56,889 nt of DNA from Oscillospiraceae bacterium. Lineage in GTDB: Bacteria; Bacillota; Clostridia; Oscillospirales; Oscillospiraceae. The notes under the pieces were generated by a model. That model had not been told where the DNA came from. It saw only the letters and a list, made by a program, of their open reading frames with translations, and made no database searches. Position 1 is the stretch's first letter, and every line of letters starts with the position of its first letter. The stretch covers positions 1 to 56,889 of the forward strand of contig CADCQK010000259.1 in assembly GCA_902803575.1 (NCBI GenBank), written 5' to 3'. The position numbers and the translations under genes were made by a program. Shown one piece after another: positions 21,087-43,170 of this stretch.

Positions 21087-23258
21087 ATGAAACGAACCAT
21101 TCGCAGATGGTCGGCACTGCTGCTCTGCCTTTGCATGATGCTGACCCTCAGCACCGCCGCCTTCGGCACATCTATGCCGGAGGTCACATCCGAAATGTCC
21201 AAACCGGGCTACTGGTCTGCGCTGCAGGCCGATCCATCCGCCCTTTTGATGACGCCGGAGGAGATCGCAGCCCAAAACGCCGCGAACATCGCCGAGCCGG
21301 GCACCAACATGACGGATCTCAAAAACCTGCCCGATACCATCGACGGCATTGCCCAGAAAAAAGCGCTGCAGGCCAGCGGTCAGGCCGACGCAAACCATTA
21401 CCTCGGCTGGACCTATCAGACCGACGGCAGCGCAGCCAATCAGGCTTTTTATGACAAGATGATCCGCAACATGTCGGATCCCAAGGCCAGCAAGGAGCAG
21501 CCTCTGCGCTATGCCATCACGGTGAACCGCACGACGCTGCACACCTTCCCTTCCAACGCGCAGATCCTCGATGATCCCGCGGACCCGGAGTTTGACTATC
21601 AGCACCTGACCGGTTTGCGCGTCAATGAGCCGCTGGTGATCTACGGCACCAGCGCCGACGGGAATTTCTATCTGGTGAAATCCATCAGCTGCCCCGGGTG
21701 GGTGCCGGCAGAGGATGTGGCCGTCTGCATCGATAAGGAAGAATGGCTCGACGCCTGGGACTTTGCTCCTGAGGACGCACTGGTGGTCTGGGGCACCTAT
21801 ACCACCGCCCTGTCCCTGGTGGCGCCGGAGGTCTCCCGCCGTCTGCTGACACAGGGCACCGTGCTGCAACGGGTGGAGCTGGAGGATCGCAACACGCTGG
21901 TGAACAACCGCGCTGCCTACAACAACCATGTGGTCTACCTCCCCGTGCGGAACGATGACGGCAGCTATGCCAAAAAGCTCTGCCTGATCGCGGAGCGTGC
22001 AGAGGTCTCTGTGGGCTATCTGCCCATGACCCGGGAGAACATCTCGAAGGCTGCACTCTCCGTCCTGGGTGACGCCTACGGCTGGGGCGGTATGATGCTC
22101 GCGGATGACTGCTCAGGTTATGTGCGGAACATCTACAAATGCTTCGGTCTGGAGCTGGCACGCAACACCAACTGGCAGCAGGCGATGCCGCTGTTCCAGC
22201 TGAATCTGACCGGTCTGAGTGACACGATGAAAGCCGCCGCGATCCGGGAGCTTCCCATCGGCGCGACGCTGTTTTTCAGCGGCCATGAGATGCTCTATCT
22301 GGGCTGCGTCAATGACAAGCTCTATGTGGTCAGCGCCGTCAGCAGCATCATGAATCCCGACGTGGAGGGCAAGCGCCAGCGGGCCAGGGACGTGATGATC
22401 AACACCCTGGACGTCAAACGCGCCAACGGCAACACCTGGCTGACCTCCCTTACCGGTGCGGACGTGCCCTTCTACCCGGCGGATGCCGGTGTGCTGGTGC
22501 CGCAGGAGAGCGAGCACGGCAGTGTGACGCTCAGCCCCATGATCGCGCCCAAGGGCACCGTTGTCACGGCTGCACCGCAGGCTGAATCGGGTTACGGGAT
22601 CCAGTCGCTGATCCTCACGGACGCAGATGGCGCGGAGACCACTGTCACCGAGCCCACCTTCCCCATGCCTGCCGGCATCAACCGTGTTCAGGCGGTCTTT
22701 GAATCGAAGACACTGACGAACATCCCGCCCAAAGAATTCGATGACGTCGCCTCTGACGCCTGGTATCATGACGCGGTACAGTGGGCTGTTGCCAGCGGCG
22801 TCACCAACGGCACCGGCGAGACCTCCTTCAGCCCGGACGCCTCCTGTACCCGCGCCCAGGCGGTCACCTTCCTTTGGCGCGCCGCCGGTTCTCCGGCTCC
22901 CGCCTCCGAGGTCAACCCCTTCCAGGATGTGGCGGAGGACGCTTACTATCACGACGCGGTCATCTGGGCAGTGGAGCAGAAGATCACCAACGGCACGGCG
23001 GAGGGCACCTTCAGCCCCGACGCCTCCTGCACCCGCAGCCAGATCGTCGCCCTCCTCTACCGCGCTGCCGGAAGCCCTGAGACGACCGAGGAATCCACCT
23101 TTGCGGATGTCGCTGCGGACGCGTTTTACGCCGACGCAGTGCGCTGGGCCCTGGAGCAGAAGATCACCAACGGCACCGACAGCAGCCGTTTCAGCCCCGA
23201 GATGACCTGCACCCGCGCCCAGATCGTCACCTTCCTCCAGCGCTTTGAAGCAAAATAA
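21087..23258 (+). CDS. Secreted NlpC/P60-family cell-wall hydrolase with C-terminal SLH-like repeats
   Basis: Signal peptide MKRTIRRWSALLLCLCMMLTLSTAAFG. NlpC/P60 core DDCSGYVRNIYKCFG ... GHEMLYLG. Three SLH-like units at the C-terminus. Confidence 0.85.
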   Translation: MKRTIRRWSALLLCLCMMLTLSTAAFGTSMPEVTSEMSKPGYWSALQADPSALLMTPEEIAAQNAANIAEPGTNMTDLKNLPDTIDGIAQKKALQASGQADANHYLGWTYQTDGSAANQAFYDKMIRNMSDPKASKEQPLRYAITVNRTTLHTFPSNAQILDDPADPEFDYQHLTGLRVNEPLVIYGTSADGNFYLVKSISCPGWVPAEDVAVCIDKEEWLDAWDFAPEDALVVWGTYTTALSLVAPEVSRRLLTQGTVLQRVELEDRNTLVNNRAAYNNHVVYLPVRNDDGSYAKKLCLIAERAEVSVGYLPMTRENISKAALSVLGDAYGWGGMMLADDCSGYVRNIYKCFGLELARNTNWQQAMPLFQLNLTGLSDTMKAAAIRELPIGATLFFSGHEMLYLGCVNDKLYVVSAVSSIMNPDVEGKRQRARDVMINTLDVKRANGNTWLTSLTGADVPFYPADAGVLVPQESEHGSVTLSPMIAPKGTVVTAAPQAESGYGIQSLILTDADGAETTVTEPTFPMPAGINRVQAVFESKTLTNIPPKEFDDVASDAWYHDAVQWAVASGVTNGTGETSFSPDASCTRAQAVTFLWRAAGSPAPASEVNPFQDVAEDAYYHDAVIWAVEQKITNGTAEGTFSPDASCTRSQIVALLYRAAGSPETTEESTFADVAADAFYADAVRWALEQKITNGTDSSRFSPEMTCTRAQIVTFLQRFEAK
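22737..23255 (+). repeat. Three SLH-like repeats
   Basis: FDDVASDAWYHDAVQWA..FSPDASCTRAQAVTFL, FQDVAEDAYYHDAVIWA..FSPDASCTRSQIVALL and FADVAADAFYADAVRWA..FSPEMTCTRAQIVTFL. Confidence 0.75.
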
Positions 23259-28019: not shown

Positions 28020-29000
28020 ATGATTCGAATTTACGGAACCCTTGGACCCGCCAGTGAGAGCAAGGAAATCCTGAAAGAAATGCTGCGCGCCGGTATGACC
28101 GGCATTCGGCTGAATCTCTCACACAGTATGCTCGCAGAGGCCGCCGCTGATCTGGATGCGCTGCGTGCGGCAGAAAAAGAGACCGGCATCCCTTCGGAGC
28201 TGCTCATCGATCTGCAGGGGCCGGAGGTGCGCATCGGAAAGCTTCCGAAACCGCTGGAGCTGGAAATAGGCAGCAGCGTCAAGTTCGGAGAAGAGATCCC
28301 GGTGCCGCTGGCGGTCCTTCAGGCGCTGCAGCCGGGACAGAAGCTGCTGCTGGATGATGGAAAGCTGCTGCTGGAGATGGTAACGGAAACCGAAGCGAAG
28401 GTGCTGCGCGGCGGAATGCTCGCCAGCCGGAAGAGCCTCGCCATCGAGGGCGTGGATCTGCACCTCCCTGCGCTGACCGACGAAGATCGCGTCAATCTGT
28501 CCCACGCAGCGGAATTTGGCGTGACCGCAGTCATGCAGCCCTTTGTGCGGGGTGCAGAGGATCTGGTAACGCTGAGAAAGGCACTGGACGACGCTGGCGG
28601 GTCCCACATCAAGATTTTTGCCAAGGTTGAGAATCAGTCCGGCGTACAGCATCTGCCGGAGCTGCTCCCTCATTGTGATGAGATCATCATTGCCCGGGGC
28701 GATCTCGGGAATGCCGTGACGCTGCTTCAGCTCCCGGCAGTGCAAAAAGAAATCGCTGCGATCTGCCGGAGGGCCGGGAAGCCGTTTCTGGTGGTGACCC
28801 AGCTACTGGCCAGCATGGAGCACGCGCCGATCCCCACCAGAGCGGAGGTCAGCGACATTTTCAACGCGGTTCAGGATGGCGCGGATTCCCTGATGCTCAC
28901 CGGGGAGACCGCCGTCGGAGCCTATCCCGTGGATTCGATTCGCTGGCTTCGGGATGCCGCAGATGCAGCTGAGGATTACAGAAATGAAAAAACGCGCTGA
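28020..29000 (+). CDS. Pyruvate kinase-like protein, barrel domains only (326 aa, no C-terminal regulatory domain)
   Basis: GTLGPAS, RLNLSHS, DLQGPEVR, KVENQSG, IIARGDLG, VTQLLASM and PTRAEVSDIFNAVQDGADSLMLTGETAVGAYP motifs. Confidence 0.8.
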   Translation: MIRIYGTLGPASESKEILKEMLRAGMTGIRLNLSHSMLAEAAADLDALRAAEKETGIPSELLIDLQGPEVRIGKLPKPLELEIGSSVKFGEEIPVPLAVLQALQPGQKLLLDDGKLLLEMVTETEAKVLRGGMLASRKSLAIEGVDLHLPALTDEDRVNLSHAAEFGVTAVMQPFVRGAEDLVTLRKALDDAGGSHIKIFAKVENQSGVQHLPELLPHCDEIIIARGDLGNAVTLLQLPAVQKEIAAICRRAGKPFLVVTQLLASMEHAPIPTRAEVSDIFNAVQDGADSLMLTGETAVGAYPVDSIRWLRDAADAAEDYRNEKTR

Positions 29001-29016
29001 AATCAGCGCGTTTTTC
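28986..29016. terminator. Bidirectional rho-independent terminator closing the minus-strand block
   Basis: AAAAA-ACGCGCTGA-AA-TCAGCGCGT-TTTT. It overlaps the stop codon at 28998-29000. Confidence 0.85.
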
Positions 29017-29022: not shown

Positions 29023-29874
29023 TCAGATAAGATCCACCGTGGCGATTCTCGGCTCGAAGCAACAGGTAGGACGGACGCAGACGATCCGGACACCGCTGGC
29101 TCTCTGGGGGCCGACCTTCATGAAGGTGGCGATCACGGAGGTGTTGCCGCCGAGACCCAGGGGTCCGATGTTGGCCTCATTCACTCTGCGGGTGATCTCC
29201 TGCTCCATGTCGCTCTGCACGTCGTAGCGGCCATCCACCTGCGCCTGGAGCATCATGGATGCAGCCTCGAAGTGGCTCCGCCCGACGCCCACCGCCAGCG
29301 TGCAGGGAGAGCAGCCCAACTGTGCTACGCCTTCCTTCGCCCAACTGACGATCTCGTCCAGCACCACCTGGGTGTTGTGCTTGTGGAACACCCGATAGGT
29401 CTTGGCACGGATGGCAGGGCCGCCGCCAAACATGAGGATGTGCAGCCGCAGCACGTTTTCCTCGCAGCGGCGCAGGAGGATCGGAGCAGGCTCCACGCCG
29501 GCGCTGTCAGGGTTCAGACCGCCGCTCTGGTCGATCCGGTGGCTGTCATCCCCCATGATCCCCATGGGGCGGCCAGGGAGCTTTCGGAGCCCCTGCCGGA
29601 CACCCTCGCGGATCTCATCCAGCATCCGACCGGTCACGGCGCAGTCCGGGCCAACCTCCAGCACCAGGTGCGGAATGCCGGAATCATCACAAAGAGGGCT
29701 GCGGTTCTGCTCCGCCGCCTCCGCATTGTCCAATACCGTCTGGAGCACCCATCTGGCCTGCTCGTTCTGCTCTTTTTCGATGGCAGCGCGGTAGGCCGCT
29801 TTTTTGTCCGCGCGGAAGGTGGAGCCGGCCTCCACCAGCGTGTCCCGCACGAGACTTACGATGTCATTTTTCAT
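29023..29874 (-). CDS. Fe-S type hydro-lyase, tartrate/fumarate subfamily, alpha subunit
   Basis: SD GGGAGGAG lies 5 nt before the ATG at 29874. The NRSPLCDDSGIPHL motif corresponds to the CQDTG motif of class I fumarases. Eleven-nt overlap with the beta gene. Confidence 0.8.
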   Translation of the reverse strand: MKNDIVSLVRDTLVEAGSTFRADKKAAYRAAIEKEQNEQARWVLQTVLDNAEAAEQNRSPLCDDSGIPHLVLEVGPDCAVTGRMLDEIREGVRQGLRKLPGRPMGIMGDDSHRIDQSGGLNPDSAGVEPAPILLRRCEENVLRLHILMFGGGPAIRAKTYRVFHKHNTQVVLDEIVSWAKEGVAQLGCSPCTLAVGVGRSHFEAASMMLQAQVDGRYDVQSDMEQEITRRVNEANIGPLGLGGNTSVIATFMKVGPQRASGVRIVCVRPTCCFEPRIATVDLI

Positions 29875-30373
29875 AAATGCTCCTCCCATGGGCTGCGCCG
29901 ATGATCGCAGGGTAGCGATCCACCTTGATCAGATGCAGCGCCTCCATGCCAAGCTCCGGGAAGGCCAGGACCTTCCGCTCGGAGGTCTTAGCCTCCAGCA
30001 GTGCCGTCACCGGCGGGATCACGGCATAGACCGCGTTATATTGATCCAGCGCTTGGATGGTCTCCTTGTGCAGCTCCCCTTTTCCCAGATGCAGCTTGAT
30101 GCCGGCTCTGGACAGCGGGGCGATGCTGCTTTCGATCTCCAGCTTGTTGGAGCTGGTGGGGCCGACGCCGGCCGGACTGACGGCGGTGTGGAAAATCACC
30201 TGACCTCTCAGATCCACGCCAAGCTCCCCCACGGTGCCGTCTTCGATCATTTTCAGCACCTTCGGAAGCACGGCGTCTCGTCCGCAGAGGATATAGCCGC
30301 TGATCTCAACGGTATCTCCCACCTGCAGGGCCGCTGCCGCTTCCTCTGAAATCGGTGTTTTCAATGCAATCAT
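29864..30373 (-). CDS. Fe-S type hydro-lyase, tartrate/fumarate subfamily, beta subunit
   Basis: GDTVEISGYILCGRDAVLPK and HLGKGE motifs, typical of the FumA C-terminal / TtdB domain. Confidence 0.8.
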   Translation of the reverse strand: MIALKTPISEEAAAALQVGDTVEISGYILCGRDAVLPKVLKMIEDGTVGELGVDLRGQVIFHTAVSPAGVGPTSSNKLEIESSIAPLSRAGIKLHLGKGELHKETIQALDQYNAVYAVIPPVTALLEAKTSERKVLAFPELGMEALHLIKVDRYPAIIGAAHGRSIYEK

Positions 30374-30394
30374 ATGAAATCCTCTTCATTCGAT

Positions 30395-30427
30395 TTGACT
30401 GCCTGCTCTTGCGGAACAGGCAGTCAA
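30395..30427 (-). other. Perfect 11-bp inverted repeat (intercistronic stem-loop)
   Basis: TTGACTGCCTG-11 nt-CAGGCAGTCAA between the lyase stop and the beta-subunit SD. No U-tract on the transcribed strand. Confidence 0.5.
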
Positions 30428-30435
30428 TTTGTAAG

Positions 30436-31581
30436 TTACTCATTCACGGCAAAGAGCTTTACATAGCCGCTTTCATTCTTGATCACGCCAAAGGCTCTCG
30501 CCCGGTTGTAGATCTTCTTCGCCCAGTTGGTATGGGGTCTGATCTCGTTCATTTTGTTTCCGCCGGAGCCCTTGACCACACCGCCGTTGGTGCCGAGGAT
30601 CTGACAGGCGTCGTCATATTCCTCCCTGGTCACCGCCATCAAAGCGTTGACGAACTTGACGTGGGTGGGATGGATGACCGTTCTGCCCACAAAGCCGTTG
30701 GCCTTGTCGAGGATCAGCTCCCTCAGCAGACCGTCGATCTCGTTGTTCACCAGCGGCTGACGGCGCATGAGGTAGTCCTCGATCCCGTGGTGGGGCAGCT
30801 CCTCAAACATCAGCTCCTTGGGCGCGCGGAAATACTCCCACACCGGCCCGGAGATCACATAGTCATTGTTGCGGCCGCAGATGTTGATGATGTCGCTGAG
30901 ACACTCACGGACGGTCATAATATCATAAAGACTGTAATCCACCCCGCGGCGCACACCGAACACAGAGCTGAAGTCCGTACCGCCCACGCGCACCTGCAGC
31001 ACCAGATCGTGATACTTGTCCAGGATCTTCTTGATGCCGATCAGCTGCTGCAGCCGGCTCTCCTTGTAGGCGACCTCCGGGTCCTCAATGATGGGCATGC
31101 CATAGAGGATCTCTCCGAAGCGATCGTTCAGATCCTGCAGGTAGGCATAGTACTCATAGCCGTTCTCCGCGTTGAATTTTGGAAAATTGACGCCGCAGAG
31201 AGAACGGACCTCCTGCTTGGTCAGCTTTTCCCCAAAGGCTTTGAACTGGGCCAGGTTCCGGATGCGGACGAAGATCAGCGGCACATAGTCCGGGTCCAGC
31301 GTGCCGTTGTCCACAGCCTCGGTGACCGTGGAAAGCAGATGGTGGACATTCTCCATGGCCTCCGGTACTCTCTCCTCCGGGCAGGCGTCCTCGAAGCAGA
31401 GGACCATGGTGGTCAGTCCGGGCATGGCGTGCTCCAGGATCTTCGGTGTAAAATCCTTGTACCCCGGCATATACATTGTGGCGCCCAGACAGTACTGGAG
31501 CAGCTCACGCTCCGTGTACTTGTTAAAATGCTCCGGCTCGACCACGAACTTGAAATCCGGGTTATACATGTGGTGTCTCAT
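30436..31581 (-). CDS. HpcH/HpaI aldolase / citrate lyase beta (CitE)-like TIM-barrel C-C lyase, long form (381 aa)
   Basis: The LCFEDACPEE motif corresponds to the CitE D/E-L-E-D-A metal motif. RVGGTDF and VIHPTHV motifs are also present. SD AAGGAAG lies 9 nt upstream. Confidence 0.65.
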   Translation of the reverse strand: MRHHMYNPDFKFVVEPEHFNKYTERELLQYCLGATMYMPGYKDFTPKILEHAMPGLTTMVLCFEDACPEERVPEAMENVHHLLSTVTEAVDNGTLDPDYVPLIFVRIRNLAQFKAFGEKLTKQEVRSLCGVNFPKFNAENGYEYYAYLQDLNDRFGEILYGMPIIEDPEVAYKESRLQQLIGIKKILDKYHDLVLQVRVGGTDFSSVFGVRRGVDYSLYDIMTVRECLSDIINICGRNNDYVISGPVWEYFRAPKELMFEELPHHGIEDYLMRRQPLVNNEIDGLLRELILDKANGFVGRTVIHPTHVKFVNALMAVTREEYDDACQILGTNGGVVKGSGGNKMNEIRPHTNWAKKIYNRARAFGVIKNESGYVKLFAVNE

Positions 31582-31650
31582 TTGTTGCTGCTTCCTTTCG
31601 TCTTGCCGTACCGGTATCCCTGCCGGTACAGCGGAAATCCATGGCCGGGA

Positions 31651-32553
31651 TCAGACCAGGCTGCCCTTGGGAGACCATACGGCCTCGGGGTAGTATTCGT
31701 CGATCATACGCTTGACCAGGCTGCACTGCTTGGCGCGCTTGCGGGCGTCGTCCTCGGTGCTGTCCCAGGAGTGGGTGGCAGCCACAGAGCCGCCGGTCTT
31801 CAGATAGATCGGAGCGGCAATGCGGATCATCTCCGGCACCTCGTAGTGGCGGATGAAGCCGCCGGTGGACTTGGGGTTTTCGGTGTGGATGTCGATGGGG
31901 CAGTCCACCGCCTGACGCATGGCGGCAAGCATCTGCAGCTGGATGTCACGCACCGGGTTGATGGAATCGGCGCCGATGGTCTCCAGCAGCTTGGCGGAGC
32001 AGGGGTTGCCGTGGCCCGCGTGAGCGGAAACCTTGAAGTGGCAGTCCTCGGGGATCTCGCCTGCCTTGCGCATCTCGTTTAAGATCCAGAGGCATCCCTC
32101 GTCATAGACCAGGAAGCCGCGGGCACCCAGACGGGCGGCGCGCTTCACATCCTCAATGGCGCGAATGATCTGCTCCTGACCGCGAAGACGGTAGCCCATG
32201 CGGACGCCCTCTTCGGTGTGGACGGAGGCGGAAGTGTCCGTGGTGGCGCGGGGACCGATGGCCAGAATCAGATCCGTCTGCCACTGGTGAGCAAGCTCCA
32301 CCATCTTGCCGATCTCCTGATCCGTCAGACGCATGATGCCCTGGGTCTGGGTCACACGGTGCAGATACAGGCCGTAGGAGTCCATGGCCTCCAGCAGCGC
32401 GCGCATGACCTTGGGCCCCTGAATGCCGGGGACCTCAAAGCGGAACTGGCCGCCGTCCTTGAAGCGCTTCTCAGAAGTGGGCAGATCATAAGCGTCCCCG
32501 CCGGGGAGGCCGACAGATTTCAGGAATTCTCTGGTTTGCTCCATGCTGTTCAT
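31651..32553 (-). CDS. Conserved hypothetical enzyme, probable alpha/beta barrel, family unassigned (300 aa)
   Basis: SD GGAGAAAGGA lies 7 nt before the ATG at 32553. The sequence is globular with alternating hydrophobic and charged segments, plus His-rich segments SAHAGHGNP and IDIHTEN. The opposite-strand ORF is low-complexity. Confidence 0.6.
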   Translation of the reverse strand: MNSMEQTREFLKSVGLPGGDAYDLPTSEKRFKDGGQFRFEVPGIQGPKVMRALLEAMDSYGLYLHRVTQTQGIMRLTDQEIGKMVELAHQWQTDLILAIGPRATTDTSASVHTEEGVRMGYRLRGQEQIIRAIEDVKRAARLGARGFLVYDEGCLWILNEMRKAGEIPEDCHFKVSAHAGHGNPCSAKLLETIGADSINPVRDIQLQMLAAMRQAVDCPIDIHTENPKSTGGFIRHYEVPEMIRIAAPIYLKTGGSVAATHSWDSTEDDARKRAKQCSLVKRMIDEYYPEAVWSPKGSLV

Positions 32554-32589
32554 GTTCAAATCCTTTCTCCGGCAGTGCCGGACGATGTA

Positions 32590-33720
32590 TTATCCGTTCA
32601 GATCGTCGATCAGTTCGTCGATGGCCGCCCGGTGATCGAAAATGATTGGCGGCAGCTTCCGGGTCAGTCCCTTGTGGATGCGGCAGTCGATGAAGGCTGC
32701 CTTGCCGCAGTCCTTCAACTGAGAAATGGCCTCAATCAGTTCTTCTTTCGTGGTGACCGCGTGGCCGACGGTCGCGTAGCCGCAGGCCTCCGCCGCTTTG
32801 GTAAAGTCCACAAGATGTCCCGCCGAGGGCTGACCGCCCACGGACTCATGGGCGCCGTTGTTCAGCACCACATGGAGGAAGTTTGGCGCCTGCACCTTGC
32901 TGACCATGGTCATGGCACCCATGTGCATCATGGCGGCGGAGTCGCCGTCCAGCGCCACGACGTGCCGTTCCGGTCTGGAAAGCGCGATCCCCAGGGCAAC
33001 CGAGGAGCAATGTCCCATGCTTCCCACATTCAGGAAATCCCGGGCTTTCGTCTCTCCCCGCTTCTCTCTGAGGAAAAACAGTTCTCTGGTGGCGCGTCCG
33101 GTGGTGGCACTGTAGACGGTAACCTCCGGCATGTGGTCGAGGATCACCTCAATGGCCTCTTCCCTGCTCATGGGATAGACATCATCCACATTGTTGGGCT
33201 TGTCGGGATCCGCCATGACGCCCTTGGGAGCAATGAGCGCGTAGATGCCGCGGGTCTCTTTGCAGTAGGTCACCGCTCGCTCCACGGTCTCGCTGAACTT
33301 CCGGTCGTCATCCTCCAGAATCGTATAAGGGATGTGCATCACATCCAGCAGACCCGGGGTGATCTCCCCCTGGAGCTTGTGCTGGGGGTGGTTTGGCTCT
33401 GTGTTTCCCTGGCCGCGCCAGCCGATCAGCAGCAGCATCGGAACAGCGTAAACGTCCCGGTCTGCCAGGCTGGCCAGGGGGTTAATGGTGTTGCCCATGC
33501 CGCTGTTCTGCATGTAGACCAGCGGGATCTCTTTGGTGGCGAAGTAATGCCCCGCCGCGATGCCCACGGCGTTGCCCTCATTGGCGGCGATCACGTTCCG
33601 ATCGCCGCAGTGGAGAAGCGCATAGTTGCAAAACCCGTTCAGATAGGAGTCCGGCACACCGGTGAAATAGGTCACGCCGTGATCCCGGAGGGTTTGAAAT
33701 ACGTTGTTCTGGTCCAGCAT
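32590..33720 (-). CDS. Single-chain ThDP-dependent decarboxylase of the phosphonopyruvate / sulfopyruvate decarboxylase family
   Basis: N-terminus YFTGVPDSYLNGF, then ANEGNAVGIAAGHY, LVYMQNSGMGNTINPL, LLLIGWRG, and a ThDP motif region ALDGDSAAMMHMGAM...NNGAHESVG. At 376 aa it is a fused alpha+beta form. Confidence 0.75.
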   Translation of the reverse strand: MLDQNNVFQTLRDHGVTYFTGVPDSYLNGFCNYALLHCGDRNVIAANEGNAVGIAAGHYFATKEIPLVYMQNSGMGNTINPLASLADRDVYAVPMLLLIGWRGQGNTEPNHPQHKLQGEITPGLLDVMHIPYTILEDDDRKFSETVERAVTYCKETRGIYALIAPKGVMADPDKPNNVDDVYPMSREEAIEVILDHMPEVTVYSATTGRATRELFFLREKRGETKARDFLNVGSMGHCSSVALGIALSRPERHVVALDGDSAAMMHMGAMTMVSKVQAPNFLHVVLNNGAHESVGGQPSAGHLVDFTKAAEACGYATVGHAVTTKEELIEAISQLKDCGKAAFIDCRIHKGLTRKLPPIIFDHRAAIDELIDDLNG

Positions 33721-34701
33721 TTACTTTTTCTCGCCCCCTACCGAGCCCTTGCCCTTGTAGAGCGTGAAATACTCCGGGCTGTCGCCCTTGGTGATGGCCC
33801 AGGCCTGCTCAAAGGCCTCCACCACGTCCTCCGGCAGCGGGCCGGCCTGGATGGTCTTCATGTTCTGCTGCAGATGGTTCAGCTTGGAGGCGCCGATGAG
33901 GATCGCGTCCCCCCGGTCGCCGTTCAGCATCGAATGATAGGCCAGCCAGCGGTAGGTGGCCTCGATGCTGGTAATGCCGTGCTTTGCCGCAGCGGCTTTG
34001 ATGAGATCCACCGCGTCAAAGAAGCTCTTCTTCCAGTAGCGTCCCTGATAGTTGGGCCGATGGGTGAACCGGCCGTCGGTGGGCGCGTCCGTATAGGAGC
34101 CGTACTTGCCTGTCAGCAGACCGCCGCACATGGGGTTATAGGCATAAAACCGCATGCCGAAATGGTTCAGACAGTCGTTGAGCTCCGCCTCGGCTCTGCG
34201 GGTCAGCGGATTGTAAACACCCTCGAAGACCGTGGGCTTCACCCAGCCGTGCCTGTCGCAGATGTGCCACACGTCGGTGACCATCCAGGCCGGGAAATTG
34301 GAAATGCCCAGTTCCTTGAATTTGCCCTGATCATGGAGATCCGCCATGGCCTCCAGAACGGAGATCACGGGCGTGGCGGGGTCCGGGAAATGCAGGAACA
34401 TGATGTCCGCGCAGTCCAGCTTCATCCGCTCCAGGCTCTCGTTGACCTGCATATAGGCCGCTTCCGCGTCCAGCTTGCCGGTGATGCGGGGATTCACCTT
34501 TCCCGCGATCTTGAAGGGCCGGTTCAGGTTCGGCAGCACCTCGCCCAGCAGCCGCTCGCAATTGCCCTCGTTATAAACATAGGCAGTGTCCAGCTCATCG
34601 TAACCCGCATCCAGAAATGCGTTGATAAAAGACTCCACATCCGGGGAAAACACGGATTCCCCGAAGGTCATGGTCCCAAGAATCAGTTTTACGTTGTTCA
34701 T
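33721..34701 (-). CDS. Aldo/keto reductase
   Basis: LGTMTFG, LDTAYVYNEG, HFPD and a LIGASKLNHLQQN-type C-terminus. The stop TAA abuts the next ATG. Confidence 0.85.
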   Translation of the reverse strand: MNNVKLILGTMTFGESVFSPDVESFINAFLDAGYDELDTAYVYNEGNCERLLGEVLPNLNRPFKIAGKVNPRITGKLDAEAAYMQVNESLERMKLDCADIMFLHFPDPATPVISVLEAMADLHDQGKFKELGISNFPAWMVTDVWHICDRHGWVKPTVFEGVYNPLTRRAEAELNDCLNHFGMRFYAYNPMCGGLLTGKYGSYTDAPTDGRFTHRPNYQGRYWKKSFFDAVDLIKAAAAKHGITSIEATYRWLAYHSMLNGDRGDAILIGASKLNHLQQNMKTIQAGPLPEDVVEAFEQAWAITKGDSPEYFTLYKGKGSVGGEKK

Positions 34702-34715
34702 GCCATCACTCCTCC

Positions 34716-36050
34716 TTATAGTTCCCTGATCAGGGCATCGACCGGGGCATCGGTCCGATATGCGGTTTGATAGACCGAATTGCTTGTGTCAGGCGAGATG
34801 CCGGCGTATTCCATCAGACCGTCGTAGCGCTCCCGGAATTCCCGGTCATCCAGCGGGTTTTCCGGCTCCCCTTTCGGGAAATCCACGCGGTCGGTGAAAG
34901 TGCCGTCCTTCGTGCGGATCGTGACCACCGCCGCCTGTACATCGGGGAACACGGCACTCAGCTCCGCATCCGCAGAAACCTTGACCTTTTGAGTCAGATC
35001 CAGGACCGCGGCGCCCTGCACAGCCTCCTCCGTGAACTCCTGCAAGCCCGCTTTCCCAAAGAGCAATCCCGCCGCCGTGGCGTAGGGGATGCTCATTTTG
35101 GCGCTGTAGCTGCCGGGGATCTCCGTATGGTCATGGCCGCTGACAGCGAGATCATAGGTCCGGATCGAAATCGATTCCACATCCTCCGGCTTCACCCTGC
35201 TGCGCAGATGGATCGCCGCCTCCACCGCAGGGTGGGTATAGCGGCAGGAGGCATAGGGCTTCGTATAAGACTTCATGATGGCATAGGTGCCATTCAAGAA
35301 CACCGGCTGCAATTCAACAGATTCCTTGCCGGTCATCATCTTCAGAAAGCCGCGGCCGCCCAGCGGGTCGCTGTGTCCTTTGAATCCGCTCCTGGCCAAT
35401 TGCAGCGCCGTGAGCGAAAGCAGCGCCGTCTTAGCCACATTATAGGGCTTCAGCTCACTGCCGTCATCCAGCACCTTCAACATGCCGCTGGCAGCCACAC
35501 AGGCACAGGCAAAGGCCTGAAACCGCTCCTCCTCCGAGAAGTCCAGCAGATAGGCTGCCGCCAGCGTTGCGCCCAGCGTGCCGCAGGTGCCGGTGGCGTG
35601 GTAGCCCATGGCCTTGTGCCCTGGCTGGATGGACACTGCCATGGTGTAGGACGCCTCATAGCCGGTTATCGCCGCCCGGAGCATCTCATCCACTGAAAAA
35701 CCATATCGCTGGCACAGCGGGATCAGCAAACTGAAGATCGGGCTTCCCAGATGGATGATGCCGGAGTTGGTGCCATCGTCAAAATCCAGCGCGTGCCCGT
35801 TCAGGCCGTTCAGAAAGACCGCTTCCTTCAGCACCAGATCCCTTCCGGTTCCGATGGCGCGGAAGGCGCCCTGCTCCGGCTCCGCGAAGGCGAAATAGCG
35901 ATCCAGCTTTTCTCTCTGGAATCTCGCCCCGGCGCAGGTCACAGCCAGATAATCCAGCAGGCTTCGACGCGCGCGGGCCATGACGGTCTCCGGAACCGGT
36001 TGATTCCACACGCCGTCAATGGCTTTCAAAAAATCGATCGATTGATTCAC
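34716..36050 (-). CDS. MmgE/PrpD family protein, paralog 1
   Basis: GTG start 7 nt after GGAGG. ARRSLLDYLAVTCAGA, ALDFDD and HLGSPIFSLL motifs, with the two-domain PrpD layout. Confidence 0.8.
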   Translation of the reverse strand: MNQSIDFLKAIDGVWNQPVPETVMARARRSLLDYLAVTCAGARFQREKLDRYFAFAEPEQGAFRAIGTGRDLVLKEAVFLNGLNGHALDFDDGTNSGIIHLGSPIFSLLIPLCQRYGFSVDEMLRAAITGYEASYTMAVSIQPGHKAMGYHATGTCGTLGATLAAAYLLDFSEEERFQAFACACVAASGMLKVLDDGSELKPYNVAKTALLSLTALQLARSGFKGHSDPLGGRGFLKMMTGKESVELQPVFLNGTYAIMKSYTKPYASCRYTHPAVEAAIHLRSRVKPEDVESISIRTYDLAVSGHDHTEIPGSYSAKMSIPYATAAGLLFGKAGLQEFTEEAVQGAAVLDLTQKVKVSADAELSAVFPDVQAAVVTIRTKDGTFTDRVDFPKGEPENPLDDREFRERYDGLMEYAGISPDTSNSVYQTAYRTDAPVDALIREL

Positions 36051-36102: not shown

Positions 36103-37893
36103 TCACGGGACAGAAACCTGTACAAAATCGCTGGAGATCTGACCATAGTCGGTCTCGAACTCCACCTTCAGAAGCCATGTGCCCGAATCGTGATTCGTGA
36201 GCACATAGCCGTTGGCCTGCTCCTCCGCTGTGAGGGCGTAAGCGCGGGAAACCGCCATATAGTCCCGGCTGGTCTTCGACAGAACACCGCCGGCATTGTT
36301 GGTATCCGGGTAGCACCAGGCATACCAGGTCGGCTTTGCGTTGGAGGAGGAGAATGTGAGCTTCACATTGCCGTCCTCCAGAACCTCGGCGCCGATCCGG
36401 GTATCGACCACGAGGAAGCTGGCGGGGCGGCTCTGCCCCTCGGGCCCGGTCAGAAACACCTGATAGGATCCGCTGCTGAGATCTTCGTACCGCAGGCAAA
36501 AATCCTCCGGAATCGCCGAAACAGAGACCACTTCGCTGCCCCGTGTGAGCACGGCGCGCTCATAGCTTGCCGCGTTCATTACATCGATCTCCACCGTCTC
36601 TCCCAGGGGCCAGTTGGCCTTGTCGCCCCGTCTGGGACAGAGGTTTTCGTTCAGATGGAAGTGCTTTTCCCAGGAAGTATCCGCAGGCGGAACGTCGTTG
36701 ATCTTCGTATAGCGGTAGATATCATACCCAGCATTGAGCCAGTTGTCGTTGAATTCCCGGCGGGAATAGGTGCGGACGCGAACCTGGGGGGCGCGGGCTT
36801 CCGCTTCCACCAGGTTTATGATCCTGCCGTCCGGAGTGCGCTCCACACCGACGATCATGCAGACGTGGGAGTCCCGCTTCAGGATCATGTCCCCCAGGCG
36901 AATGTTGTCGATGCTCTGATCTTCCAGATACACCAGCCCGTCCAGCAAGCCCAGCTGATGGGTCGTATAGATGCAGGGCAGATCGTAGTTATAGCTGATG
37001 AACGACGAACACACGGAGCCATAGTAGGTGCGGCTGTTCCGCAGCTCGGAAACTCTGGTATAGAGATAGGACTTCGGGTTGCTCGCGGCGCTCAGATAGC
37101 TTTCGAAGGAGACCGCGTTGGGCACATACAGCGACTCCTGACGGGTCGAGGAATACATGACCCCATCCACCCGGGTGTCAGGCGCCACGTCCCCCTTCTG
37201 CCCCGGCAGGACCGCCCGGGTGACGATGGAGAGTTCCACGCTCTGCATGGCGCGGTCAATGGCGTTGCGCACGCCCTGGCTGTTCGGCAGGTCGTGAAAA
37301 AGATTCAGCTTCAGATCCGAGACGATGGAGCAGCCTTCAGGCAGCCGGAAATGCTCTGCGTCAAAAGCCGTTCCGTCTGCATAGCCCAGAATAAAAACCG
37401 CATAGCTCGCACCGCTGACGTCGCCGGCGCTGACGGTTCGGGACACTGCGGAAAACTCAGTTCCCCACAGGAATCGGAAATCCGAATCGAAATAGCCAAC
37501 TAAGTATTGCAGCCCGGACGCTGGGTCCCATGTGACTTCGATGGTGCCAAGAGGCCAGAAGCCGGAGCGGAGCCGATTCTCGTTAACGGTATTGTCGCCG
37601 GATCCGTTGGAGACCCGAATGCCGCCAAGAACAAAGTCATCCACCGCAAAACGCCCCGGGACCAGATTCGTTTGGTTCATATCCTGTCCCCCCGCTTCCC
37701 GGAGTACCGCAAACTGCAGCGGGTCCACCGGCGTCGGTGTGGGCGTCTGCTGTACGGGAGTCGGCGCAGTTGTCGGTTCCGCCAGCACATCGCTGGGATC
37801 CGGCTGCCCTGCCACAGGTGCAGCGGTGCCGCATCCGGTCACAAGCATTATGAGTATAATACAAAATAAAAAACAGGTAAGCTGTCTTCCCAT
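36103..37893 (-). CDS. Lipoprotein with a putative NlpC/P60-like (papain-fold Cys-His) domain
   Basis: SD GGGAGA lies 7 nt before the ATG at 37893. Lipobox LVTGC and a Pro/Thr linker. Candidate nucleophile YGSVCSSFISY (Cys310 in track numbering) and GDMILKRDSHVCMIVGV (His358). Confidence 0.55.
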   Translation of the reverse strand: MGRQLTCFLFCIILIMLVTGCGTAAPVAGQPDPSDVLAEPTTAPTPVQQTPTPTPVDPLQFAVLREAGGQDMNQTNLVPGRFAVDDFVLGGIRVSNGSGDNTVNENRLRSGFWPLGTIEVTWDPASGLQYLVGYFDSDFRFLWGTEFSAVSRTVSAGDVSGASYAVFILGYADGTAFDAEHFRLPEGCSIVSDLKLNLFHDLPNSQGVRNAIDRAMQSVELSIVTRAVLPGQKGDVAPDTRVDGVMYSSTRQESLYVPNAVSFESYLSAASNPKSYLYTRVSELRNSRTYYGSVCSSFISYNYDLPCIYTTHQLGLLDGLVYLEDQSIDNIRLGDMILKRDSHVCMIVGVERTPDGRIINLVEAEARAPQVRVRTYSRREFNDNWLNAGYDIYRYTKINDVPPADTSWEKHFHLNENLCPRRGDKANWPLGETVEIDVMNAASYERAVLTRGSEVVSVSAIPEDFCLRYEDLSSGSYQVFLTGPEGQSRPASFLVVDTRIGAEVLEDGNVKLTFSSSNAKPTWYAWCYPDTNNAGGVLSKTSRDYMAVSRAYALTAEEQANGYVLTNHDSGTWLLKVEFETDYGQISSDFVQVSVP

Positions 37894-37981
37894 CCGGCAT
37901 TCTCCCGCGGTGTATTCGAAAAAGCGGATCATCCGCATCTGATTTGTTTTTTCCGGAAACGCCGGAACCGGCAGCCTGAAA

Positions 37982-38728
37982 TCAATGCACAGACCGCGCT
38001 CTCAGGCGTCCGTAAATGCTGAACAGCTGGCGGTCCTCCACGTTTCCGGAAAACTGAAACGCATCGTCGCTCCGCGTCAGAATCATCTCCAGAGGAACCT
38101 CCGGCACCACCTCATGGCGGTAGTCGATGGCGGCGAAGGCCACCTCATACTGCCGCATGGCCTCGATCCCAAAGCTGTTGCACAGCCAGTCGGCATATCT
38201 CGCGTTGTTGACATGTCCATTGATGTCGATATCGGCGTATTGGGGCTGATGCCGAAAGCGCTTCTCTTCACCGGAAAGAGACTTGACGCCCATGGAGATC
38301 TTCACGGGCGGCACTGCCTCCTCCGCATCGGGGATCACAATGCCCCGTTCCGCCGGTGAGACCGCCTTTCTGGTGGTGCGGTCCATCAGCATCAGCAGTG
38401 AGCCGATGCGGACGATCACCGCCCCCCGCGCGTCCGTTACCAGATAGTATCTCGGACAGAACATGGAGCGGGAGCCCTTGGTGAAGGTTCGCACCGTGAC
38501 GCTTTCTCCGAGGCGCGGGTATCGATCCACATAGAGATCGGTCTTGAACAAAACCCATGAGAGATTCTGCTCGGTCAAATCATCATGCCACAGATGCATT
38601 GCAGCGCTGTGCTCGTTGGCCGTGCTCTGGGCCATCTCCAGAACGGAGCGCAGCATCCATTGGCCGTTGATGTCGCACTCACTGGTGCCAAGGTGAAATC
38701 GCTTTTCAAAAAAGGCCTGTGGATCCAT
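37982..38728 (-). CDS. Acyl-ACP thioesterase (FatA/FatB type)
   Basis: Starts MDPQAFFEKRFHLGTSECDINGQWMLRSVLEMAQ. Contains a NLSWVLFK motif and a second hotdog half with ADIDINGHVNNARY. Confidence 0.8.
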   Translation of the reverse strand: MDPQAFFEKRFHLGTSECDINGQWMLRSVLEMAQSTANEHSAAMHLWHDDLTEQNLSWVLFKTDLYVDRYPRLGESVTVRTFTKGSRSMFCPRYYLVTDARGAVIVRIGSLLMLMDRTTRKAVSPAERGIVIPDAEEAVPPVKISMGVKSLSGEEKRFRHQPQYADIDINGHVNNARYADWLCNSFGIEAMRQYEVAFAAIDYRHEVVPEVPLEMILTRSDDAFQFSGNVEDRQLFSIYGRLRARSVH

Positions 38729-38735
38729 GGTTATC

Positions 38736-40079
38736 TCACCCCCGGAGCCATTCCATCGGGTTGCAGAACGGTCGATCCGACGAAATCTCTCCGATTGCCC
38801 TCTGCAGTCCCGCAAGCTGAACCTCATCTGCGAGACCCTGGGCACATACCCGCAGCTTGGCAACGATGTCCTCTGCCGAAAGCGGATTCTCCGGGTCTCC
38901 CTTCGGCACCAGAACCGTCTGCTTCAAACGCCGGCCGCCGCTGGTCAGAATCTCGATCCTGGCGCCGCGGATGCCTCTGCTGCGATCCTCCATGGTTTCA
39001 TCCGGAATCAGCTGGATCCGGTCAATCATGGATCTGATCGAATCGGTCAGACGACCCGGCTGCATATCCTCAACACCGTAGCTGCCGTTCAGCAGGGCGC
39101 AGGCCAGCGTGTACGGGATGGAAAACTTGGTTTCATCCGGATCCCTGGGATACGGGATTCCGGCAAGCTTGATGGCATTGGGATAAATGAAGACGTTGAC
39201 CGTCCGAATCTCCTCCGCCTGCACCTGATCGTGCAGCAGGATCCCCGCGTCAATGCCGCAGTGGGTATGACGGCAGGAGGGATAGAGCTTAAAATAGCAG
39301 TCGTGCAGCAGCAGATGATCCGAGCCGCGCAGACAGCTTTCATCCACATGATCCGTCACGGCATGGAACCAGCCGTTTGGCCCCTCAAGAGACTCCGTGG
39401 GGCCAAGCATGCCTTCCCTGGCGAGCATCGCAGCGAAGATGCCGTTCTCTGCCGCCTTGCCTGGATTGAGCGGCTTGATCGCCGGTCTGGAATCTCCATA
39501 GGACAACAGGCCGCCGGACATGGTGGTGGCAAGAGCAATGGCGTTTTCAAGCCCATTCGCATCCAGGTGATACAGCCGCGCACAGGCAGCTGCACAGGCC
39601 AGAGTGCCTGCCATGCCGGTGGAGTGAAATCCGTGCTGCACCAGCCCGGGCTGCGCCGCCGAGGAGATGCGGATATACGCCTCATAACCCGCAGCGAGGG
39701 CCAGCAGCACGTCATTTCCGGTGCTGCCCAGCTTTTCTCCCAGGGCAAACACAGCGGGAATCAAATGCACGCCCGCGTGTCCGGCTGCCTTCTTGTTTCC
39801 GTCATCCAGCTCGGCGCCGTGACCATAGACAGCGTTCATAAAGGCCGCCAGTCGGGCGGGATATTTTGTTTTCTGAAAGAGCACCGTGCTCTCTGCAGCG
39901 CCGCCCTGCGCATACACCACCGTCTCCACCGCGTCGTTGAAGACCCGGTTCTGTCGATAGCCGGCGCAGGCAGCCGCGAAAAAGTCGGTGATCAGGATCT
40001 GCAGCTGCGATACATCCCGCTCTGAAAGGTTACAGATCGAAACAAGATCGCGCGCCAGTTCCGTTGTCATACCGCCCAT
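38736..40079 (-). CDS. MmgE/PrpD family protein, paralog 2
   Basis: ITDFFAAACAGY, ELDDGN, HAGVHLIPAVFAL, PSCRHTH and a PKGDPENPL motif near the C-terminus. Confidence 0.8.
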   Translation of the reverse strand: MGGMTTELARDLVSICNLSERDVSQLQILITDFFAAACAGYRQNRVFNDAVETVVYAQGGAAESTVLFQKTKYPARLAAFMNAVYGHGAELDDGNKKAAGHAGVHLIPAVFALGEKLGSTGNDVLLALAAGYEAYIRISSAAQPGLVQHGFHSTGMAGTLACAAACARLYHLDANGLENAIALATTMSGGLLSYGDSRPAIKPLNPGKAAENGIFAAMLAREGMLGPTESLEGPNGWFHAVTDHVDESCLRGSDHLLLHDCYFKLYPSCRHTHCGIDAGILLHDQVQAEEIRTVNVFIYPNAIKLAGIPYPRDPDETKFSIPYTLACALLNGSYGVEDMQPGRLTDSIRSMIDRIQLIPDETMEDRSRGIRGARIEILTSGGRRLKQTVLVPKGDPENPLSAEDIVAKLRVCAQGLADEVQLAGLQRAIGEISSDRPFCNPMEWLRG

Positions 40080-40108
40080 TGCTTGCGTTCCCTTCTGATT
40101 TAAAAAGT

Positions 40109-41380
40109 TTATGCCTTAGATTTTTTCGAAAGCTTCTTTCTCAGCTTCCGGTAATCTGCCTTATCGATGAACAGCATGGTTCGAAACGGGATCCCGGTGG
40201 TGCGGCAGAAATACACGATAAACAGGACAGAGCAGACCGCATAGGAGATGACGCTGGCGAGACCGGCGCCGTAGATTCCGGAGATTGGGATCAGGATCAG
40301 GTTTGCAACCACGTTGCTCAATACGCCGATCCCCAGCAGGACAAAGCTCACAACCTGCTTGCCCATGGCAATGTTGTAAGAGGCGATGAGCTTATAATAG
40401 ATCATCGAAAACACACCGGCGAGCAGGATCAATGTGACCTGATACGCGCCGCTGAACTCGCTGCCAAAGGCAAAATCAATGAAGGGCTTGCCCAGCGCGA
40501 TAATGCCCAGCACAATCACCAGACAAACCGTGTTGCTGATACGGATGACATACGCCGTCTCCCGGGCATCCTTGCCCTTGGCGATGTTGGAAACCATGAC
40601 GCCCTTCATGGCGTCGGGGATCATCCAGATCCGCTCCGCCAGAAGCACGCCGACGGAATACACACCGATGGCTGCATCCGCCACACGGCCGTTGAGCATC
40701 AGGACGTCTACCCGATAATTCAGGGTGGTCATCAGCAGAGAGAGCATCGGGAAAAAGCCGAATTTCACCAGCTTCGGGATCCAGATCTTCAAAGACTCCG
40801 AGGGGACAAAAAACCGCTTTCTCCACCAGCCGGTATAGATGAGTGCCTTGGCGACGTCCTTGATGGTGATGACAAACACACCGATGACGAAGGTGGGCTT
40901 CGCTGTGATCCAGAGGATGACCAGGATCACCAGCTCTGCGAACACCACGGCCATGTCTGAGACGCTTCGCTTGTTCGGCACCTCAATCAGCGTGATGTAA
41001 GAGACGATCTTATCGTAGGTCAGCAGCGGCGTGAGAATCAATACGGCGATGTATTTCGCAGGCAGGTCCATCACGGCGATCGCCGCCGCCGAAATTGCCC
41101 CGTAGAAGAGCAGCAGCAGCAGCGAGAGCTTCATGAAGATGGGCATGATATCCACATCGCTGTTGCGCTTGAAGTAGGGATAGGCGTGATAGATGCCCAG
41201 ACCGAACACGATGGAGGTGATGCTGACGATGCTGTTGACCGTCGCCACCTGCCCCTTAATCTCCGCGCCGAGGTATCGGGACTGGAAGATGGTGAAAACC
41301 AGGCCCACCACAACGCCGAACACTTTCGATATGACGGATAAGGAATATGCGTTTGTGAAGAACTTTTTAATTCCGCTCAT
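40109..41380 (-). CDS. Polysaccharide flippase (Wzx, MOP superfamily)
   Basis: About 12 predicted TM segments. N-terminus SVISKVFGVVVGLVFTIFQSRYLG is typical of the Polysacc_synt family. Confidence 0.8.
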   Translation of the reverse strand: MSGIKKFFTNAYSLSVISKVFGVVVGLVFTIFQSRYLGAEIKGQVATVNSIVSITSIVFGLGIYHAYPYFKRNSDVDIMPIFMKLSLLLLLFYGAISAAAIAVMDLPAKYIAVLILTPLLTYDKIVSYITLIEVPNKRSVSDMAVVFAELVILVILWITAKPTFVIGVFVITIKDVAKALIYTGWWRKRFFVPSESLKIWIPKLVKFGFFPMLSLLMTTLNYRVDVLMLNGRVADAAIGVYSVGVLLAERIWMIPDAMKGVMVSNIAKGKDARETAYVIRISNTVCLVIVLGIIALGKPFIDFAFGSEFSGAYQVTLILLAGVFSMIYYKLIASYNIAMGKQVVSFVLLGIGVLSNVVANLILIPISGIYGAGLASVISYAVCSVLFIVYFCRTTGIPFRTMLFIDKADYRKLRKKLSKKSKA

Positions 41381-43154: not shown

Positions 43155-43170
43155 GGGAATTACCTCCGAT

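Follow-up and report, generated by a model that had tools for sequence, protein, structure and literature searches.

We analysed a stretch of 56,889 nucleotides from an Oscillospiraceae bacterium (contig CADCQK010000259.1, assembly GCA_902803575.1), hereafter called the window, and focused on a minus-strand gene at positions 31651 to 32553 whose 300-residue product is referred to below as the target. The open reading frame runs over 300 codons from an ATG (32553-32551) to a TGA (31653-31651). Direct reading of the sequence places a strong Shine-Dalgarno element, GGAGAAAGGA, at 32561-32570 on the minus strand, separated from the ATG by the seven nucleotides TTTGAAC, and the gene lies directly 3' of, and on the same strand as, the gene for a decarboxylase, from which a gap of 36 nt separates it. 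These features confirm what had been described in an earlier reading made from the letters of the window without database searches (the sequence-only reading), which had also quoted several peptides of the protein; SAHAGHGNP and IDIHTEN are found at residues 176-184 and 220-226, and GIMRLTDQEIGKMVELA and LLETIGADSINPV are present as well. Neither a signal peptide nor a transmembrane segment is predicted. That the target is a genuine gene, and no chance open reading frame, follows from homologues in 5393 clusters at 90% identity (E<=1e-3), a nonsynonymous divergence (dN) of 0.06 against 80 orthologues with saturated synonymous sites, and a GC content at third codon positions of 0.83, the GC content of the window being 58.5%.

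The target gene is the fourth in a cassette of seven genes, all on the minus strand. The first in transcription order (34716-36050) encodes an MmgE/PrpD-like protein (PF03972 and PF19305), which scores 93 bits against B. subtilis IRG1, 88 against IDS epimerase and 52-60 against cis-aconitate decarboxylases of the PDB, and just 26 bits against 2-methylcitrate dehydratase; judged by these scores, its usual label of PrpD is probably wrong. It is followed by an aldo-keto reductase (AKR) of aldehyde-reductase type (33721-34701; PF00248, 191 bits, with weak matches to aldehyde reductases of NCBIfam) and by the decarboxylase already mentioned (32590-33720), a thiamine pyrophosphate-dependent enzyme (PF02776 and PF02775) resembling phosphonopyruvate decarboxylase (Ppd), which passes the phosphonopyruvate decarboxylase equivalog TIGR03297 with 397.6 bits for a cut-off of 312.5. 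On the other side of the target lies the gene for a putative CitE-type acyl-CoA lyase or synthase (30436-31581), assigned to the 'C-C bond lyase' family (CCL; PF15617, 375 bits). Its AlphaFold model, built on a shallow alignment, is moderately confident (mean predicted local distance difference test, pLDDT, of 67) and gave 48 significant PDB matches, mainly to CitE-type enzymes such as (S)-citramalyl-CoA lyase, malyl-CoA lyases, CLYBL and CitE (citrate lyase beta), and also to related putative lyases and the citrate synthase SbnG. We considered this lyase as a hidden analogue of phosphoenolpyruvate (PEP) mutase, PepM, and rejected it on those mainly CitE-type matches.

The last two genes encode a Fe-S hydro-lyase: a beta subunit of Fumerase_C type (29864-30373; PF05683, 76 bits) and an alpha subunit (29023-29889; PF05681, 165 bits, and TIGR00722, 97.5 bits, just below the cut-off), whose gene overlaps that of the beta subunit by 26 nt and whose PDB match is the fumarate hydratase 7xky. 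Both belong to the class I fumarase/tartrate dehydratase family, which also includes mesaconase. No terminator-like site was found in the intergenic gaps of the cassette, and a hairpin resembling an intrinsic terminator (28987-29016, minus strand; 13-bp stem and T run) directly after the alpha-subunit stop codon ends the operon. A plus-strand open reading frame of 326 aa (28020-29000), which encodes the pyruvate-kinase barrel domain alone (PF00224, 259 bits) without the C-terminal domain, is convergent to the cassette, leaving 22 nt between the two; at 80%, it is conserved only in the nearest relative, locus L001. Long plus-strand reading frames over the cassette, at 30355-32082 (575 aa) and 32218-34770 (850 aa), are antisense artefacts of the high GC content; the codon-position check was made on the 575-aa frame, whose GC distribution misfits a coding frame.

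The order of the cassette genes recurs across loci. We retrieved 80 loci by their similarity to the target, out of 393 species-level genomes in which the cassette was detected by a search requiring exact peptide words, and counted co-occurrence only where the flanking DNA sufficed. The hydro-lyase alpha subunit accompanies the target in 68 of 68 loci, a PrpD-family gene lies within 5 kb of it in 58 of 60, and the CCL lyase is found in 64 of 68. The decarboxylase adjoins the target in 50 of 60 loci, so that the neighbourhood of the target and a Ppd-like gene, seen in the window, extends to most of the loci counted. In about ten loci a variant cassette occurs from which the decarboxylase and the AKR are missing; most of these variants carry a D-2-hydroxyacid dehydrogenase, similar to PGDH and glyoxylate reductase and below all equivalog cut-offs, followed by PrpD, target and lyase. 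The CCL lyase thus follows the target in both forms, and on its other side the target has the decarboxylase in the main form and PrpD in the variant. ATP-grasp ligases are also encoded in variant cassettes, with tandem 'sugar-transfer associated' ATP-grasp genes (PF14397) in L072 (10900-13268), L013 and L015 (upstream), and in the variants of L072 and L076 a CoA-transferase gene comes after that of the lyase, an arrangement reminiscent of the alpha/beta pair of citrate lyase.

The sequence-only reading had placed the target where PEP mutase normally sits and proposed it as a candidate for a first committed step. On its genomic context this is unlikely, because the most faithful partners of the target are the hydro-lyase, the MmgE/PrpD protein and the CitE-type lyase, not the decarboxylase, because a 2-hydroxyacid dehydrogenase replaces the decarboxylase in the variant, and because a genuine PepM, found near the cassette in locus L019, comes with a Ppd of its own.

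Most carriers of the cassette are Clostridia of the rumen and of the human and animal gut (Oscillospiraceae, Lachnospiraceae, Ruminococcus, Acutalibacteraceae). Complete or isolate genomes among the carriers include those of Hungatella effluvii DSM 24995, Acetatifactor muris DSM 23669, Sarcina sp. DSM 11001, Lachnospiraceae bacterium NE2001 and Butyricimonas muris GBG-M4. Further copies are assigned to Bacteroidota (Butyricimonas, an isolate), Spirochaetales, Victivallales and Erysipelotrichaceae, with bin contamination being possible for the metagenome-assembled genomes among them. The cassette is usually co-directional with the surrounding genes inside surface-polysaccharide loci. Its flanks encode an initiating sugar transferase (Bac_transf), Wzx-type flippases, glycosyltransferases of families GT4 and GT2, a DegT aminotransferase, a sugar 4,6-dehydratase, UDP-glucose dehydrogenase, a phosphomutase and choline-binding-repeat proteins, and PylC/LAL-type ATP-grasp ligases occur in at least 30 cassette loci. 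The window also encodes a LytR-CpsA-Psr protein. Upstream of the cassette, on the minus strand (36103-44457), lie genes for a 611-aa lipoprotein without Pfam match (lipobox LVTGC), an acyl-ACP thioesterase, a second MmgE/PrpD paralogue (38736-40079), a protein with 11 transmembrane segments, an AMP-binding enzyme resembling acyl-CoA ligases (41416-42897) and a multi-transmembrane protein; these genes probably belong to the same glycopolymer locus as the cassette.

Searched as a single sequence against Pfam-A, NCBIfam and the PDB, the target gave zero matches. Its own homologues are numerous: the best 120 of the 5393 clusters are 84-95% identical to it, and HMMER, run exhaustively on 1.84 billion representatives at 50% identity, returned 994 clusters (E<=1e-30 for 124), with full-length relatives that are 30-54% identical to the target. 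An alignment of 26 diverse family members (A1) was used for AlphaFold2, for a Pfam scan and for profile searches. The model obtained is a (beta/alpha)8 barrel with eight beta/alpha units (pLDDT 93, predicted template-modelling score 0.91), an extended but confident N-terminal segment, and a loop of low confidence at residues 101-125 that could form a lid. The alternating beta/alpha pattern and the TIM-barrel enzyme without an assigned family, both suggested from the letters alone, are thus borne out by the model and by the empty sequence searches. Membership in the xylose-isomerase-like (PF01261) and HMGL-like (PF00682) families, which had been named as candidates together with PF02679 and PF13714, is rejected by the Pfam scan, in which none of these four families was matched by any of the 26 members, even at E<=1.

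The only family with a detectable signal was U32. Foldseek ranked the U32 'peptidase' Mk0906 (5d88) first among PDB structures (E 1.6e-8), with a template-modelling (TM) score of 0.41-0.49 and a root-mean-square deviation of 11 A over 215 columns; class II aldolases and then assorted generic barrels followed, with TM scores of at most 0.52 throughout. PF01136 (Peptidase_U32) was weakly matched by 22 of the 26 family members over residues ~135-222 (best E 7.7e-8), and by the target itself with 13.1 bits (E 0.057), below the Pfam cut-off of 22.4 bits, a sequence signal that indicates remote kinship and not membership. A profile search of the PDB with the 26 members gave nothing significant, the best match being a 138-aa uncharacterised protein (E 0.026), with 5d88 at E 1.5. 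Homologues of the target are named 'hypothetical protein' in the databases or, in a few NCBI records, 'peptidase', a label whose sole source is probably the remote similarity to U32, a family whose own peptidase activity rests on poor foundations. From the lack of any Pfam, NCBIfam or PDB sequence match, the weak U32 signal and the uninformative names, we therefore conclude that the target is a soluble barrel enzyme founding an undescribed family, at most a remote, cysteine-less offshoot of U32. A literature search on the cassette and on PF15617 returned nothing relevant. The family is new to models and literature, with no Pfam or NCBIfam model and no characterised member, and its fold is ordinary.

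Nine residues are invariant in A1 (S27, F31, E40, G143, D151, S176, R213, R235 and P248) and eleven nearly so (D33, G72, G125, R145, G153, P168, K174, N183, G194, K252 and P289). The invariant polar residues are found at or just after the predicted beta-strands, and in the model the invariant charged residues appear to cluster at the catalytic face of the barrel. The proposal that histidines of the SAHAGHGNP and IDIHTEN stretches act as metal ligands holds in part: H178, H181 and H223, together with H65 and H236, are invariant in 121 close orthologues, and H178 and H223 are kept in the nearest clade, but none of H178, H181 and H223 is conserved across the wider family. These histidines may be subfamily-specific ligands. 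No cysteine is conserved among the 26 members, and C185 and C218 vary among the 121 close orthologues. A Fe-S cluster in the target was considered and is rejected on this lack of conserved cysteines in both sets.

Across the 80 loci, the target is 89-98% identical to that of the window (median 92.5%). Its dN of 0.061 is the lowest of the seven cassette genes, the other six ranging from 0.09 to 0.21, with a proportion of synonymous differences of ~0.7, which is saturated; the GC content of the cassette varies from 43 to 59% and tracks that of the host. Judged from these sequences, the identity of the target reflects very strong purifying selection. Recent horizontal transfer was considered as its cause and is rejected, because synonymous sites are saturated and GC content follows the host. 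The lyase partner reaches nearly the same level in a search of its own, where its top 120 homologues are 85-94% identical.

The affinities of the CCL lyase, the IRG1/PrpD-like protein and the hydro-lyase, taken together, point to branched C4-C6 di- or tricarboxylates of malate, citramalate, mesaconate, itaconate or aconitate type as the compounds handled by the cassette. The simplest reading is that the constant core of four functions (CitE-type enzyme, IRG1/PrpD-like protein, Fe-S hydro-lyase and target) makes a 2-oxo acid, because the tailoring enzymes alternate between a decarboxylase with an aldehyde reductase and a D-2-hydroxyacid dehydrogenase. We favour as its product a carboxylate-bearing 2-oxo acid, derived from oxaloacetate or oxoglutarate, because the classical substrates of the tailoring families are pyruvates with an anionic group at C3 and because the ligases of the loci activate carboxylates. 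Our tentative interpretation, which we regard as possible and somewhat short of probable, is therefore that the target is an enzyme which, with the help of a metal, forms an enolate from a branched hydroxy- or oxo-dicarboxylate and supplies a 2-oxo acid toward a glycan substituent.

Under this interpretation, the CitE-type enzyme would join an acyl-CoA and a 2-oxo acid into a branched hydroxy-dicarboxylate of citramalate, malate or citrate type, which the PrpD/IRG1-like protein and the Fe-S hydro-lyase would dehydrate, rehydrate or decarboxylate. From there the target barrel would form a pyruvate substituted at C3; the substituent of this 2-oxo acid would be anionic, and most likely a carboxylate. 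The reaction of the barrel would pass through an enolate, as a retro-aldol cleavage similar to those of isocitrate lyase (ICL) and PrpB, a (de)hydration of a 2-oxo-enoate, a beta-decarboxylation or a keto-enol isomerisation. In the model, the catalytic residues would be those of the barrel face (E40, D151/E152, K174, S176, D196, D221, R235 and K252) with H178 and H223 added in the subfamily, and a divalent metal would probably be involved. In the main cassette, the Ppd paralogue would decarboxylate the 2-oxo acid and the AKR would reduce the resulting compound to a hydroxy acid one carbon shorter; in the variant, the PGDH-like D-2-hydroxyacid dehydrogenase would reduce the 2-oxo acid directly to the 2-hydroxy acid. 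The carboxylate-activating enzymes of the loci, ATP-grasp ligases in general and the AMP-binding enzyme in the window, would attach the product to the glycan. What the analysis shows is the gene, its fold, family status and conservation, and the cassette with its surroundings; the order of the steps, the class of the substrate and the reaction of the target are the parts of this scheme that we infer.

The organisation of the cassette recalls 2-oxo-acid elongation and the methylcitrate cycle, in that a Claisen-type synthase or lyase, an MmgE/PrpD protein and a Fe-S hydro-lyase are joined in one operon. It differs from them by its CitE-type enzyme in place of a citrate or isopropylmalate synthase, its fumarase-type hydro-lyase in place of an aconitase-type one and its IRG1-like protein in place of a true PrpD, and the fourth step would fall to the target barrel, not to isocitrate or isopropylmalate dehydrogenase or to PrpB. 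By analogy, an operon with synthase, dehydratase and hydratase resembles the logic of the methylcitrate cycle, where PrpB is the lyase, and the target is of similar size to the enzymes of the PepM/ICL superfamily, to which PepM and PrpB belong, is a barrel like them and has a possible mobile loop. However, no homology to that superfamily was detected with Pfam or NCBIfam, and its ICL and PEPM structures come at Foldseek ranks 31 and 43, as generic barrel matches. Class II aldolases (tagatose- and fructose-bisphosphate aldolases, 1gvf and 3c52, and YdjI) are the next-best structural matches after U32, at TM scores of 0.45-0.52, and the 'PIDIH' strand of the target aligns locally with the 'PLVLH' strand of AgaY, which we take to carry a zinc-ligand histidine. 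In contrast to these aldolases, the target has no match to PF01116; only H223 aligns with the AgaY histidine, and it is not conserved in the family, the other two histidine ligands have no conserved counterpart, and its substrates are likely to be carboxylic acids instead of sugar phosphates.

Several observations weigh against the enolate-forming, carboxylate-directed interpretation. The family of the target has no characterised member, and the structural matches are so weak and generic that they do not fix the type of reaction. No metal-binding motif is conserved family-wide among the 26 members of A1. The position of the Ppd paralogue above the TIGR03297 cut-off argues for a phosphonate substrate rather than a carboxylate. 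Schemes that require an oxidation are incomplete because the canonical cassette has no dehydrogenase besides the AKR. The choice of loci by similarity to the target inflates the conservation of the target relative to that of its neighbours. A gene for a DctM-family permease immediately precedes the PrpD gene in 14 loci, frequently together with one for a LysR regulator (11 loci in all), and these neighbours could reflect catabolism or the scavenging of a dicarboxylate precursor, not biosynthesis de novo. The permease, which resembles the large subunit of tripartite ATP-independent periplasmic (TRAP) transporters, is encoded ~1.5 kb upstream of PrpD in loci that include L002, L004, L021, L056, L058, L060, L062, L066, L073 and L077; it is accompanied by an open reading frame of ~97 aa, and no DctP was noticed beside it.

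The distant homologues also count against assigning one pathway to the family, since the contexts of ten of them converge on no single one. The 54%-identical homologue lies in an operon in the order GntR, homologue, TctCBA, PrpD and DHDPS-type aldolase, and another lies beside an asparagine-synthase-like enzyme, an HpcH aldolase and TauD. In three unrelated lineages, HyuA and HyuB (hydantoinase/oxoprolinase) directly precede a homologue of 39-45% identity (L091 3214-7894, L092 2315-7927 and L094 4227-9939); in Streptomyces, the 3' end of a gene for a 2-hydroxyacid dehydrogenase (2-Hacid_dh) runs into that of the homologue, after which come two aldehyde dehydrogenase genes. The remaining distant homologues occupy unrelated settings, including ones with MTTB or TonB receptors. 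Because these contexts differ so widely, the family is functionally diverse. The partners that recur among them, aldolases and enzymes producing or consuming 2-oxo or 2-hydroxy acids, nevertheless speak for a link of the target to 2-oxo acids, as do the decarboxylase and the dehydrogenase beside it in the two forms of the cassette.

A bolder proposal, which we consider very improbable, is that the target founds a family of enzymes making a 3-substituted pyruvate by a reaction new to biology, in its boldest form phosphonopyruvate made independently of PepM or sulfopyruvate made independently of ComA. In the phosphonate version, the target would be a non-homologous replacement of PEP mutase forming phosphonopyruvate or a related carbon-phosphorus (C-P) compound, which the Ppd paralogue and the AKR would convert to 2-hydroxyethylphosphonate for a phosphonoglycan, and which the PGDH-like reductase of the variant would convert to phosphonolactate. 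Beyond the TIGR03297 score of the decarboxylase, this version is consistent with the absence of the PepM motif EDKxxxxxNS, in a six-frame scan, from the window and from 91 of 93 loci, the motif being present in L019 and L070 only. Decarboxylation followed by reduction and direct PGDH-like reduction are both established means of pulling the PepM equilibrium, as in the fosfomycin/phosphinothricin and valinophos pathways, and the loci build surface glycans, which are possible phosphonate carriers.

One of the two loci with the motif, L019, allows a direct comparison with the canonical route. It contains a complete canonical phosphonate module (16040-20489) at 6-10 kb from the cassette, the PepM fusion lying 6 kb away, which consists of a 681-aa fusion of NTP-transferase, cytidylyltransferase and PEP mutase domains (PntC-PepM; 177 bits with Pfam PF13714 and 400 bits with TIGR02320), a Fe-alcohol dehydrogenase and, encoded on the other strand, a Ppd of its own (449 bits on TIGR03297); in L070, the motif of a PepM fusion lies near 17480. 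Because the canonical module stands beside the cassette in L019, organisms with such modules can make phosphonates by the usual route. The cassette and the PepM-Ppd-alcohol dehydrogenase module are both found in glycan loci and share the succession of a decarboxylase of the Ppd family and an aldehyde reductase; they differ in that the cassette has no PepM, has an AKR in place of the Fe-alcohol dehydrogenase and is associated with enzymes of CitE, PrpD and fumarase type. The L019 Ppd is 41% identical to the cassette decarboxylase, a value that lies within the spread of genuine Ppds and can be counted in favour of a phosphonate substrate. However, because the genuine PepM module brings its own Ppd at that distance, the cassette decarboxylase is, by sequence, a distinct paralogue of the PepM-linked one. 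The target itself has no sequence or profile similarity to PepM: hhalign gave a probability of 0.3% for A1 against the PepM domain of L019, and the EDKxxxxxNS motif is lacking, in agreement with the sequence-only reading, which had seen no resemblance to PEP mutase. In addition, the most constant partners of the target are carboxylic-acid enzymes without a role in C-P bond formation, its homologues occur in many contexts without Ppd, and, in those cassette loci that were scanned for neighbouring genes, the cassette is found with ATP-grasp ligases, which need a carboxylate, and without genes for a cytidylyltransferase or for LicD-type phosphonate transfer. Taken together, a phosphonate-forming target has little chance of being correct.

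The sulfonate version appears similarly remote. The target would be a ComA-like enzyme forming a carbon-sulfur (C-S) bond between sulfite and PEP or an enoate, the sulfopyruvate obtained being decarboxylated by the ComDE/Ppd-like enzyme and reduced by the AKR to isethionate, or converted to sulfolactate in the variant. In methanogens, ComA is a TIM-barrel enzyme acting upstream of the ComDE decarboxylase, and the fold and size of the target are compatible with it. The cassette decarboxylase matches both sulfopyruvate decarboxylase subunit models, with 102 and 84 bits, below their cut-offs, and a TRAP-type permease with a LysR regulator, found beside some cassettes, is a feature of sulfonate operons. 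The loose resemblance of a few sequence blocks to phosphosulfolactate synthase (ComA), from which this idea arose, did not survive the searches: not one of the 26 members matched PF02679 at E<=1, and no ComA chain appeared in the PDB profile search (E<=10) or among the top 50 Foldseek matches. Unlike the ComA pathway, the cassette has no equivalents of ComB and ComC; it contains neither a phosphatase nor a sulfolactate dehydrogenase, and its partner enzymes indicate carboxylate chemistry.

It is hardly more probable that the target is a U32-like hydroxylase, independent of O2 and dependent on prephenate as UbiU/UbiV, TrhP and RlhA, that would supply the oxidation lacking in the cassette. U32 proteins have been proposed as prephenate-dependent hydroxylases, and UbiU/UbiV are Fe-S proteins (PMC10990095). 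U32 is the sole family with a sequence or structure signal for the target and provides its best Foldseek match, also a (beta/alpha)8 barrel; the hosts are anaerobic, and the AKR is the one dehydrogenase of the canonical cassette. However, the characterised U32 proteins are Fe-S proteins, whereas the family of the target has no conserved cysteine and thus not the Fe-S cysteines, C185 and C218 being variable, and both the PF01136 score of the target, below the cut-off, and its TM score to 5d88 are low. The contexts differ too, the target being found with organic-acid and glycan genes and U32 proteins with quinone or RNA hydroxylation. Finally, that the target is a peptidase, or serves the other enzymes of the cassette as a scaffold without catalysis of its own, as the 'peptidase' name and a near-whole-sequence conservation that could reflect many protein-protein contacts might suggest, is barely credible given the probable origin of that name in remote U32 similarity, the invariant charged residues at the classical catalytic face of enzyme barrels, the lack of a signal peptide or transmembrane segment and the occurrence of homologues alone in metabolic operons.

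Elsewhere in the window, a tRNA-Gly (TCC) gene lies at 12-85 on the minus strand, and no riboswitch or other Rfam element was found in the window besides this one tRNA. A plus-strand gene (21087-23258) encodes a 723-aa protein with SLH, SH3b and NlpC/P60 domains, which points to a cell wall with a polymer that anchors an S-layer.

The cassette is an uncharacterised and widespread pathway, with ~5,400 clusters at 90% identity for the target, ~5,700 for its lyase partner, and 393 species-level genomes. Since the surrounding loci serve to construct the cell surface, the product of the cassette is probably a decoration on a glycan visible to the host and to phages. The cassette decarboxylase is annotated automatically as a phosphonopyruvate decarboxylase without an accompanying PEP mutase, so that the carriers are either mis-annotated as 'phosphonate producers' or have an unrecognised source of the substrate. 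If a new C-P or C-S route were true, a second way of forming C-P bonds would exist, and hundreds of gut and rumen species would have been missed by surveys based on pepM. Once known, the reaction of the target would give a function to a large orphan family, reveal a new glycan substituent and settle this question of annotation.

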